Shown: positions 779 to 4,058 of the stretch, in pieces
Layout: each line of letters starts with the position of its first letter
Position numbering within the stretch: position 1 is the first letter of the stretch
NCBI GenBank assembly: GCA_937625935.1
Contig: OW569356.1
Location: 1 to 64,000, forward strand
DNA length: 64,000 bases
Origin: Tetramitus jugosus
Taxonomy: Eukaryota; Protista; Heterolobosea
Direction of reading: 5' to 3'
Notes under the pieces: generated by a model
The model's database searches: none
What the model saw: only the letters and a program-made list of their open reading frames with translations
What the model was told of the DNA's origin: nothing
Program-made: the position numbers and the translations under genes

Positions 779-780
779 CC

Positions 781-2251
781 CACACCCCGAGGATCTTCGC
801 ACTTGCCTCATTGTGGTTCTGATTGGTGTGAGACTGTTTGGTTGTGGTTGATCCATTTTCCAGAAATATTTGACCAGTTCTTGTGCATCTGTGTGTTGCT
901 GAAGATCTTGTAGGTTGGCGACATTTTGAGAACAGAAGATTGACATTCGTTCATACGCGTCGATTGATTCATCTGAGTTCCAACCCACATGTCTCTTGAT
1001 TGCCTGTCTTACACTGTCCTTAATGATACCGTATCTCAAGATGCTAGTTAGGAGTGCTTGACAGATATGTCCACTTCGTAATGATCTCATAGTGTATCTG
1101 CATTTCAATTCCTCTGCAGAACTTTTTTTCATCAAGTTTGACATATCTTTGGATGTCATTGGTTGTTCACTAGTCGATTGGGTGAATAAAAATTCGTCTT
1201 GTGCTCCTTCAACTAATCTATAATCACCTGAATTGATCACTTCCTCTAACGTTGGTGAAACAAAAACCTTCCTGATGTGAAAGAGGTACCAAAGAAGAGC
1301 AAACACTGGACATCGATTCAAGTCACTACTGCCGTATACAGTGTTTCTTAACTCATGTCCTCCAACACCTTTGTTCTTATAACCCACATTCTGGGCAACT
1401 AAATACAAATGTTCATCGTTTTTCAAACTTGAAAAGGTGATGTGTCTCAATTTCATATAGGAAAGAGTGTCTCCTCTCCATCCAACATGTCTACCAAACA
1501 TTATGAGAGCTCTCAACTTAATTTGTAGTTCTCTGTTGTCTCTCTTGTGCAATTTTTTCTGCCATTTCTCTAAATCATTGTTGAGCAATGGGCACACTTT
1601 AAATTTCGAGTTCCCGTACTTTCGTATCAAAGCTCGGAAGAGTTTATGTATAAAATCCTTCATCTCTTTCTTCAAGTCGATTCCTCTTTCCTCCTTCAAT
1701 ACAGAACATAGTTGATTCCAGAAGCAGTTGACGACAGTACTATGACTGTATTTGTGTATCACTCGCATATGCAAGAGATATAATCCAACTACAAACTTGT
1801 TTGGGTTGTAAGGGTCAACTGTTGTCAACTCTGAGTGCTTGTTTTCTTGCTCCTTTAGCCAGCTAATCCAACTCCTCCAGGCATAGGCTTGAACCAGTTT
1901 TGTACCAGGAGCTTTAGATAACTCTAATAGATTCATCAATTGAATCATTTGATCCTCAATTGATTGGTTCTCATCGATGTTGACGGTCACTTGACGGCAA
2001 AAATCTTCTCCTCCACCTGTTTTCTCCATTCTCTTGATAGGATTAAACGATAGGTCATCCGTCACCTTCTTTATTCCTGTTTTTCCTGCTAACATTGAAA
2101 GCTCCTTGTCAATGTCTTCCATCGTTGGACCATCAACCTCCTGTGGTTCGAAAGAGTCTTCAACAATGATTAGACCATTAGAAACAAAAGGATGAGAAGG
2201 AGACTTTTTTATTCTTTCTAACTGATTGGAGTACTCTTCTTCTATTGTCAT
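781..2251 (-). CDS. Tyrosine recombinase (Cre/phage-integrase fold), ~490 aa, no stop codon before the telomere; absent from the ORF track
   Basis: Manual translation from ATG 2251 ([10 protein letters not shown]...) is open to 781. Core-binding-like region ([21 protein letters not shown]...VVGLYLLHM...YSHSTV); box [15 protein letters not shown]259[13 protein letters not shown]292 (GYKNKGVGG); [18 protein letters not shown]389SLR392SG; IKRHVGW424NSDESIDAY433ER. The W-to-Y spacing of 9 equals Cre W315/Y324. Confidence 0.92.
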
Positions 2252-2256
2252 TGAGA

Positions 2257-3060
2257 TTAGTTGGTTTTACTCTTTTTTTTGTTGGGACCGCTGGACGAGC
2301 TTCGTCTCTTGGAACCACCAGAGGTAGAGGTGGAAGGAGACGTGGCATTATCGCCTCCATTTTCTCTCATCTTGATAAGGAGTTGTCTAATTCTGGAAGG
2401 CATTCTATCCTGAGACAACAATTCCTTCTTGATGTTATCATCAATTGTAGAAGGACTATGTTGGGACATGACCCAATACGGGAAGGCTTCTAATGCGGTC
2501 ATACTTTCTACCATCAATTTTGGACTTCTTAAAATGGAAGTGGTCTCCAAATTTGAACTTCTCTCATTGAAGACAAGGGTTAAATGGACCAAGAACTCTC
2601 CGACTCGGATCTCTCTTAGGAAACTCTTCAATTCCGATCCGATCGGATCCGCACCCTTAATGGTTCGGAAAAGATTCGCCCCCTCCTCTCCGGTCTCCCT
2701 CTTACGAATCGCATACCTCATGCAGGCAACGATGGACACGTGTTTTCGGAGTCGTTCAAACTCCTGATCACTCATTTTGGCCATCTGACCAACCGTTTCT
2801 TGAGAATGGGGAGGCCTTTCCTCAGTCTCCACAATGACCAGAGATCTCTCCAGCCAATTCAAAGCCTTCTTTGCAGACTCACTTGGTGGAATTTCAATTT
2901 CCAATTCTTCACACAGTTCAGAGAGCTTCTCAATCTCTTGCTTCTTGTTGTTGAGATTCAATAAAGCATCTCTTAGTTGGCTTGTAAGGCTACTATTGGA
3001 AGTCTTCTCTTCCTCCAATTTTTTCTTCAAGTCTTCAATCTCCTTGCTCACCTCCTTCAC
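2257..3060 (-). CDS. ORF1 of the YR element: orphan protein with N-terminal coiled coil and basic C-terminal NLS-like tail; 5' end uncertain
   Basis: 267-aa ORF ends 5 nt before the YR ATG. The frame stays open upstream to 3159 without an ATG; the nearest ATG (3209) is in another frame, implying a frameshift or intron. Confidence 0.65.
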   Translation of the reverse strand: MKEVSKEIEDLKKKLEEEKTSNSSLTSQLRDALLNLNNKKQEIEKLSELCEELEIEIPPSESAKKALNWLERSLVIVETEERPPHSQETVGQMAKMSDQEFERLRKHVSIVACMRYAIRKRETGEEGANLFRTIKGADPIGSELKSFLREIRVGEFLVHLTLVFNERSSNLETTSILRSPKLMVESMTALEAFPYWVMSQHSPSTIDDNIKKELLSQDRMPSRIRQLLIKMRENGGDNATSPSTSTSGGSKRRSSSSGPNKKKSKTN

Positions 3061-3309
3061 TCCTTCTTTATCTTCACCGATGAAGAAGTTGTTACCAACT
3101 TTGGAGATGATAACAAGTGAACTAATTTTATTACCAGTCGTTGGTAACTTCTCTCTATATCATTAGAAACAATAAAAGAAATTGAGTTAGTTTCTGTAGT
3201 TGTAGACATGATGTAGTTGATAACCTTGTGATTTGTTTTGTTTGCGTTTGTTTTTGATCAAAACTCCGAGATTCGAAAGGAAAAACTTTGTTTATTTGTG
3301 CAGCTACTC

Positions 3310-3522
3310 GTTACACGTGCCAAGTTAACTTAGCGCTTGGAACCATCTTCTTCGCGTAGTGGTTGGCTTCGAATCATTGAACGGGGATTTACACCGCATA
3401 AGCTCATTGCATTGCGGGGACTGTCCCTGCTCCCGGATCGGGCCCTCAATTCTACCTCTCGGTAGGTCAGTTCAATCATATTTCACCTTCCACTACTGCA
3501 GACTATGGTCCACCAGTGTAAC
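3310..3522. ncRNA. Putative structured RNA (or folded ssDNA) element of unknown family
   Basis: Nested complementary segments: 3310-3316/3516-3522, 3342-3346/3505-3509, 3356-3362/3490-3496, 3376-3382/3470-3476, plus local hairpins 3320-3340, 3394-3417, 3432-3442, 3452-3465 (GAGA tetraloop on the minus strand). GC-richer than its flanks. Confidence 0.55.
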
Positions 3523-3532
3523 CAGATCTTGC

Positions 3533-3855
3533 GGCCCGTAAACGGGCCTAGGTAGAAATGAAATTTTAGAAGGGCCCGTAAACGTGCCTTAGTAAAAATG
3601 ATTTTTGGGCCGCCCGTGAACGGGCCATAGTAATCAACTGTTTGCCCATAAAAAATCAAGTCTCGGTCGCCCGTGAACGGGCTAGAGAAAAGTTGATAAA
3701 TAGGCGGCCCGTAAACGGGCTAGATAGAATAGGTGGCCCGTTCACGTGTCATAGTAAAAGCATTTTTTAGGTGGCCCGTAAACTCTCTCAATAAAAATCG
3801 ACCTTTATTACGGGCCATAGTAAAAAAGCAGTCATATGCGGCCCGTTTACGGGCC
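3533..3855. repeat. Array of ~9 copies of the 16-bp palindrome GGCCCGT-NN-ACGGGCC, typical period ~38-40 bp
   Basis: Copies start at 3533, 3573, 3611, 3668, 3706, 3735, 3773, 3801 (half-site) and 3840, separated by related AT-rich spacers (ATAGTAAAA...TTTTT.GG). Confidence 0.9.
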
Positions 3856-4040
3856 ACCAGATATGCGAAACCCAACTGAAACCCAACGGAAATCACATGT
3901 TTCGTCTATAGTTCCACAACCACAAGTCAAAAAACAACCATAATGTTAAGTTGAACATTTCAAGATATGAGGAATACAAAAACAGGTATTGTAACGCATG
4001 AATACACTCCTTGACGTACTTTTGGTTAGTGTATACGTTA

Positions 4041-4058
4041 AAACCCAAACCCAAACCC
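4041..4058. repeat. Interstitial telomeric remnant (AAACCC)3
   Basis: AAACCCAAACCCAAACCC in the same orientation as the telomere; further partial copies AAACCCAAC at 3868-3876 and 3879-3887, and AACCCAAAC at 4078-4086. Confidence 0.85.

Follow-up and report, generated by a model that had tools for sequence, protein, structure and literature searches.

A truncated tyrosine-recombinase element capped by telomere repeats in Tetramitus jugosus, from an apparently undescribed family in heterolobosean amoebae

What lies between the two telomere tracts at one end of a Tetramitus jugosus contig, and how did it come to be there? We analysed the first 64,000 nucleotides of the forward strand of contig OW569356.1 (assembly GCA_937625935.1), hereafter the window, in which a sequence-only reading had seen a tyrosine recombinase (YR) element of four parts packed between telomere tracts of the same orientation. 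All four parts are present: two open reading frames (ORFs), here called ORF1 and the YR ORF, a structured stretch and a palindrome array. We conclude that they make up an element of a real and apparently undescribed YR family, associated with telomeres and found in heterolobosean amoebae, and that the window holds a healed, truncated copy of it. The terminal telomere, (CCAAAC)n at 1..787 on the plus strand with TTTGGG on the G strand, has 131.3 copies at 99% match and shows no deviation as far as 776; its units degenerate at 777-787, likely the junction mark of a de novo telomere addition site. The internal tract (4041..4086, plus strand) has (AAACCC)3 at 4041-4058 in the same orientation as the terminal telomere, a spacer at 4059-4077 and a further unit at 4078-4086, and is likely the old boundary between subtelomere and telomere. 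The DNA between the tracts measures 3.26 kb and contains two ORFs, with no other frame longer than 120 aa in 788-3210. On the minus strand, toward the telomere, the order is the terminus at 4040, telomere-like boxes, the palindrome array, the structured stretch, ORF1 and the YR ORF.

The second ORF encodes a predicted Cre-like tyrosine recombinase, to judge from a modelled core-binding and catalytic fold and a full predicted catalytic set. The gene (788..2251, minus strand; protein P0001) is truncated at its 3' end, being cut at about codon 488 without a stop; as read to 779 the ORF has 491 aa, and its frame remains open through the telomere. The predicted catalytic residues are R259, K292/K294, R389-S-L-R392, W424 and Y433. 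Across 23 family members with a mean identity of 20%, R259, K292 and K294 are invariant, and R389, R392, G423 and Y433 are conserved in at least 90%. W424 and Y433 are nine residues apart, the same spacing from W to Y as in Cre. Fold searches, for which we used a structure model of the full-length relative P0002 (mean predicted local distance difference test score, pLDDT, 49), placed Cre on top in both programs: in Foldseek it was the best match (E 6.2e-4) and ranks 1-13 were all Cre or Tre, and in VIA it scored Z 10.8 (root-mean-square deviation 12.6 over 199 aligned residues), ahead of ALOG (7.9), integron integrase (7.4) and XerA (7.0). Other YRs, Ndc10 and topoisomerase IB ranked below Cre. 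These matches, together with the conserved catalytic residues, bear out the proposal that the element carries a tyrosine recombinase. At the sequence level the YR has no significant match in Pfam, PHROG, NCBIfam or PDB; weak Phage_integrase Pfam matches, all under the curated cut-off, appear in four of the 26 distant members scanned, and the viral fold library returned nothing at E <= 0.001. Among 40 of 185 rows of variant copies, 9 of the 11 substitutions listed for the YR ORF fall at third codon positions. Conservation of the catalytic residues and the predominance of third-position changes imply selection on the YR.

The window's copy of this gene is incomplete. P0001 ends 220-290 residues earlier than its close relatives, which beyond that point carry a C-terminal helical domain, an acidic tail and a common terminal motif; the helical domain and acidic tail are thus missing from P0001, and the suggestion that the element might be complete here does not stand, the copy having been cut inside the YR gene with the loss of those 220-290 or so residues. 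In the relatives, the helical domain is modelled with a pLDDT of about 87-94 in most blocks; it has no clear fold match, and the matches listed include no Myb or telomere-binding fold. A Dicer RNase III-type assignment was considered and dropped, the best rows (Z 5.5-5.7, E 2.1) being too weak.

Truncation at a telomere is shared with other members of the family. We compared the C-termini of nine close-family proteins, counting P0002 and P0009 once and leaving out fragments that end earlier as well as P0011 and P0013, which end in unrelated sequence. Five end in the common motif and four read into TTTGGG-type peptides (P0001 at residue 488, P0004 at 692, P0005 at 757 and P0076 at 755), in three frames and at four points. 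Such peptides were absent from a control of 20 long host ORFs (16,755 aa), and among 81 proteins the only other match was the N-terminus of P0069. This distant member begins GLGLG...PNPNP directly before its catalytic motif, as if both telomere strands adjoined a YR fragment, and may represent a fold-back, a chimera or chance. Telomere junctions are found in each of the subfamilies, whose proteins are 60-72% identical, and three of five truncation points lie within the last 100 or so codons of the YR. The proximal side of the element appears to be more constant. Its terminus (3990..4040, minus strand) starts TAACG and contains an imperfect terminal inverted pair, the fold of which is not above chance. 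After the telomere tract of P0004, six residues, a length picked after looking, have their best match among 127,960 six-frame positions at 4041 on the minus strand, in the frame of the repeat. Because P0004 thus appears to continue into the element start, it suggests head-to-tail arrays in which the tail of one copy is followed by about three repeats and the start of the next. The proximal start next to a telomere tract is apparently kept in this 60%-identical relative, and the proximal terminus is likely conserved in relatives. Collectively, these comparisons of sequences point to telomere association as a family trait of the YR element. As TTTGGG contains no stop codon in any frame, the transcript of a truncated YR would run on into the telomere, a non-stop message encoding poly Gly-Leu, and telomere-repeat RNA could be produced from the element's promoter.

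Read-derived contigs support both junctions. The internal tract is bridged without differences by record 6 of run X1 (4000-4318), and telomere repeats are joined to position 790 in four contigs of run X3; therefore, neither junction is an assembly artefact. In run X1 a variant copy is joined to telomere repeats near 1440, within the catalytic domain, and loose ends translate to parts of P0010, a protein of a second subfamily. A tie between the element and TTTGGG repeats thus holds beyond this locus, as the sequence-only reading had anticipated: it is seen at four of the nine C-termini, in the X3 contigs and in the X1 copy capped near 1440. Past 790, record 1 of X1 extends for 781 letters and record 17 of X4 for 119. 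Long perfect repeats are beyond what an assembly graph of short words can spell out, and we therefore infer, without certainty, that these are untruncated copies; the 781 letters come close to the window's own 789. Read depth falls in steps of about 40, with exact-match contigs near 170, a figure that has no single-copy baseline and fits either several loci or the homologues of one. The palindrome array and the structured stretch are covered by reads in X1 and X3, with variant copies. Subtelomeric DNA at 4100-5100 is likewise present in variant copies, at a depth similar to that of the element, and in X1 and X4 the match to diverged copies of the subtelomeric block ends at 4075. Two smaller observations concern this region. 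The 19 bp between the telomere units at 4059-4077 form a near-palindrome, which could be the footprint or tiny remnant of an earlier insertion. At position 3932 the window has A, whereas all aligned X1 contigs and 93% of the X3 depth have C; either the window is wrong here, or its A is a minority form of a chromosome end that has many copies.

Where does this family occur? Full-length close relatives have 710-806 aa and are 60-72% identical to P0001, which is also 33% identical to a protein of Naegleria lovaniensis and 24% to one of N. gruberi (P0031). A search with a YR profile gave 66 hits of up to 921 aa; 20 of them were looked up, and all seven that carry an organism name come from Naegleria or Willaertia. 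The named relatives are thus heterolobosean, in keeping with the earlier placement of the element in a protist lineage other than the kinetoplastids. In a tree of 23 catalytic domains, all from members of this YR family, the close family forms one clade (100/100), the sister group of which is unresolved. TTTGGG is itself the candidate telomere repeat of N. gruberi (PMC3622300; this and the other papers are cited for the sections drawn on). P0031 has a C-terminal chromodomain (PF00385, E 4.7e-10) that might guide this YR to heterochromatin. No relative was found among 113 candidates from prokaryote genomes, where the junction pattern had no matches either, or among 43, 4 and 1 candidates in viral-contig scans with A1, P0029 and P0018, and tblastn against phages and plasmids gave nothing significant. 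The single pass (L001) among 113 candidates of a metagenome scan proved to be a bacterial AAA ATPase gene matched by chance. We found no description of the family in the literature searched, a search with little subscription coverage and with Repbase outside it, and a term search in the covered parts of PMC3537659, PMC13465315 and PMC12747079 gave no mention of it. The supplements of PMC6681497, which concern an 'uncharacterized YR' clade, could include relatives.

The remaining parts of the element resemble nothing we could name. ORF1 (2257..3210, minus strand) is a 300-aa open frame running from stop to stop at 2257-3159, with a coiled-coil-like N-terminal part and a basic C-terminus; its stop codon at 2257-2259 lies 5 nt ahead of the YR ATG at 2251. 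The first in-frame ATG falls at residue 126, and the closest ATG upstream, at 3210, is out of frame, so that ORF1 is either broken or depends on an intron, a frameshift or an internal start. Forty-eight single GT-AG introns fit and none stands out; because X1 record 4 confirms 3047-3328, the odd start is not a window error. We found no homologue of ORF1 among 3022 candidates and no family above the curated cut-off in Pfam or NCBIfam, only weak PHROG matches of the coiled-coil type. The structured stretch (3330..3530), 120-320 nt upstream of ORF1, is predicted to fold, at -67 kcal/mol, into a long stem that includes a multi-way junction (z -3.77 for the plus strand and -2.89 for the minus strand); of 150 control windows taken elsewhere in the 64 kb, none reached its energy or a z of -3.5 or below. 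It contains no tRNA and no hammerhead core, and it has no credible Rfam match, two weak ones both lying outside it; a tRNA-like identity was rejected, the A-box-like (3352) and B-box-like (3361 and 3436) matches being post hoc. The palindrome array (3533..3855) comprises seven near-complete units of the 16-bp motif GGCCCGT-NN-ACGGGCC and two half sites, spaced 29-67 nt apart with A/T-tract flanks, the first and last units being mutually inverted. The motif gives 13 strand matches (seven units) there, against 0.03 expected, and none elsewhere in the window. A palindrome-pair pattern matched one viral contig (L002), in a coding repeat of a phage, and a stricter pattern matched none. Both the array and the structured stretch exceed chance and match nothing known. 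Between the array and the terminus, two telomere-like boxes (GAAACCCAAC) with 11-nt spacing lie at 3867..3888 on the plus strand in telomere orientation, with AAACCCAA at 3868 and 3879.

Whether the intact element encodes a reverse transcriptase (RT) bears on what it is. No RT domain was found among the 27 window ORFs scanned, and no YR-RT fusion among nine hits of 214-1411 aa or among the 66 profile hits. The full-length YR ORF of relatives ends in a stop codon. The element start lies 1790 nt from the YR ATG, which predicts about 3.9-4.2 kb for an RT-free unit, apart from a short tail; three contigs that carry a full-length YR have 4033, 4256 and 4400 nt, and the contig with the tandem junction (P0004) has 4643 nt. 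The clustering of three of the five truncations in the last 100 or so codons is also what an element ending shortly behind the stop would show. Self-comparison of 779-4040 by blastn shows the palindrome array and no long direct repeats, the natural distal end being lost. We consider it fairly probable that the element is RT-free.

On balance, we lean slightly toward the view that the window contains a distally eroded, telomerase-healed copy of a telomere-targeting YR DNA transposon of about 4 kb, likely without its own RT. Through crossover within the short telomere repeats on its flanks, the element would be excised by the YR as a circle, which would reinsert into a telomere tract elsewhere, often beside an earlier copy, giving head-to-tail arrays with spacers of two to four repeats. 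The outermost copy would then be eroded or broken, with telomerase adding a new telomere at the break; because the outer copy erodes and is healed, a fixed proximal start would come with variable distal ends. The palindrome array may act in cis as a protein-binding array, for ORF1 or the YR, in synapsis or circle replication, and the structured stretch may control expression of ORF1 and YR, these being the least supported steps. Crossover at direct repeats of 4-6 bp with a circular intermediate has been proposed for Cryptons (PMC3212892), an RT-less precedent for integration by a YR at telomere repeats exists in nimaviruses (PMC10871703), and one for truncation and healing of telomeric elements in MoTeR (PMC7367193). 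A bolder version, which we regard as possible but doubtful, is an RT-free 'telomere plasmid-transposon', a unit of about 4 kb with a recombinase of its own that would cycle between extrachromosomal circles and TTTGGG telomeres, where it would lie in head-to-tail arrays and buffer or remodel chromosome ends; it would carry a structured non-coding RNA, and its palindromes, bound by ORF1, would serve as an origin or in partition. Several observations weigh against the transposon interpretation. Neither a circle junction nor a pair of empty and filled sites was seen, the H-x-x-R motif of the family has R at its first position instead of H, and the overall quality of the P0002 structure model is low (mean pLDDT 49). 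The telomere read-through of relatives is seen in peptides, not DNA; P0076 shows only GFGFG, and the post-tract peptides of P0005 and P0076 have no clear match to the element start. Named Naegleria and Willaertia members sit on long contigs. Other family contigs have 2603-3009 or 6370-10384 nt and those of distant members 8431 and 9709 nt, and since short contigs are common, contig sizes are weak evidence on the RT. An RT ORF could still lie distal to a complete YR, only DNA up to the YR end having been read, and the order of ORF1 before YR is also that of VIPER and TATE.

Three other explanations have to be weighed. One is that this is a YR retrotransposon of the TATE/VIPER kind, with its distal RT lost here, or a non-autonomous form mobilised in trans. 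This is rather unlikely in our view, despite several points that fit. ORF1 followed by YR is the order of VIPER-like elements, in which the gag-like protein lacks any recognisable domain, and TATE forms tandem clusters within telomeric hexamers and has YR ORFs that can be long, 434-982 aa as aligned (PMC6681497); DIRS1-like RTs have been reported, uncertainly, in N. gruberi (PMC3266345), and a structured RNA-like stretch would suit an RNA intermediate. The window, however, shows no RT and the 9 and 66 hits no YR-RT fusion, the three contigs with a full-length YR are too short for an extra ORF of 2-3 kb, truncations cluster near the YR end, and the surviving 3.26 kb, with its distal end missing, contains no long direct repeat. 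The distribution of telomere junctions speaks to another account, to which we give still less credence, namely that a YR element without targeting of its own was spread as a passive subtelomeric repeat by host break-induced replication or telomere recombination. The model for such passive spread is the yeast subtelomeric repeat Y'. Junctions occur in each of the 60-72%-identical subfamilies, the proximal start is apparently kept beside the tract in the 60%-identical relative, and conserved catalytic residues with a third-position bias imply selection on the YR, all of which is awkward for a passenger. Even so, subtelomeric DNA at 4100-5100 is found in variant copies at similar depth, MoTeR arrays are built and trimmed by break-induced copying at short interstitial tracts (PMC7367193), and healing at variable points requires no recombinase. 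The fixed proximal end, the variable distal ends and the short spacers could also come from telomere-primed copying on a template ending in (CCCAAA)n, with the YR as cargo on the antisense strand. Penelope/Athena and HeT-A elements are copied in this way, with the chromosome 3' end as primer. The summed X1 depth, which gives no copy number, is 557-734 over 3670-4100 compared with 102-526 over the ORFs and would agree with such copying. Yet no RT was seen, ORF1 and the YR would both lie antisense to the template, a hammerhead core is absent, and the conserved YR active site would be left unexplained. We therefore consider this last explanation very improbable.

Beyond the element, the window contains a gene of about 13 tetratricopeptide (TPR) repeats of 102 bp in subtelomeric position (5063-6985, minus strand). 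Near the chromosome end there is also an AAA-ATPase-like and PD-(D/E)XK gene (8172-10034, minus strand; PF09820, weak PF08011), a type known mostly from bacteria. Further inward, at 14449-17962, a gene with AMP-binding and carrier domains has as neighbours a MatE transporter and a gene with cytochrome b5 and YqcI/YcgG; the three may form a small biosynthetic cluster. Two neighbouring ORFs at 24336-38095 (plus strand), of 1759 and 2832 aa, overlap by a few bases, have no Pfam match at E 1e-5 and are perhaps one gene, and a tRNA-Ile(AAT) gene lies at 50091-50164 (plus strand).

How does the element compare with known systems? Kinetoplastids, in which TATE and VIPER were described, and heterolobosean amoebae both belong to Discoba. 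TATE/VIPER elements carry a YR preceded by a domain-less ORF1, as does the element described here, and lie in tandem clusters in telomeric hexamers (PMC6681497), an arrangement that P0004 suggests for the present family too. In contrast, TATE has a third ORF for RT/RNase H and split direct repeats, neither of which is seen here, the target is TTTGGG instead of TTAGGG, and the sections of that paper drawn on describe no palindrome array. DIRS1 elements share a Cre-like YR and have been reported, uncertainly, in N. gruberi, but their RT/RNase H/methyltransferase ORF lies ahead of a 3' YR and overlaps it, and they have inverted terminal repeats (PMC3266345). A DIRS1-type layout is excluded here by gene order, as no RT frame lies between or over ORF1 and YR.

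In apparent content, Cryptons are closer. They encode a YR without an RT, lack long terminal repeats and often have a C-terminal domain after the YR (PMC3212892), and the hexamers flanking our element would fit their direct repeats of 4-6 bp, the natural distal end being out of view. Two distant family members have weak, below-cut-off matches to NDC10_II, a Crypton-derived fold. None of nine close or 26 distant members has a Pfam match to GCR1_C or DUF3504, which excludes only the groups defined by these domains (CryptonF and CryptonA, respectively), since others lack them. Unlike our element, with its upstream ORF1 and long cis array, Cryptons are not described as targeting telomeres in the sections consulted (PMC3212892).

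Telomere-repeat insertion without an RT is tied to a dedicated YR family in nimaviruses, for which concatemers or episomes have been suggested, although these are crustacean viral genomes, of 300-360 kb in pemoniviruses (PMC10871703). An endogenous nimavirus or other large DNA virus was rejected here, given only 3.26 kb with two ORFs and neighbours of TPR, AAA-PD(D/E)XK and host type; the element contains no viral genes, and neither the viral structure libraries nor those of viral sequences gave a significant match. MoTeR elements resemble it in their arrays inside telomeres, their short interstitial tracts and their truncation followed by de novo telomere addition; they are retrotransposons, and the distal end that varies is their 5' end, in contrast to the 3' end of the ORFs in our element (PMC7367193). 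In this respect, each capped copy is a record of a natural telomere-healing site and offers a handle on the barely studied telomere dynamics of heteroloboseans, and the YR, a predicted Cre-like enzyme from a eukaryote whose target may be a simple repeat, lends itself to assay.

The element thus resembles TATE in location and Cryptons in apparent content, and class assignment to either goes no further. If our interpretation is correct, it could be a living intermediate in the proposed origin of YR retroelements from a Crypton plus an RT (PMC6681497). In the literature drawn on, small telomere-targeting elements are retroelements, such as TATE and MoTeR, and the RT-free YR case is that of the giant nimaviruses. 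The gap between them would be filled by a compact DNA transposon that uses a YR to target telomere repeats.

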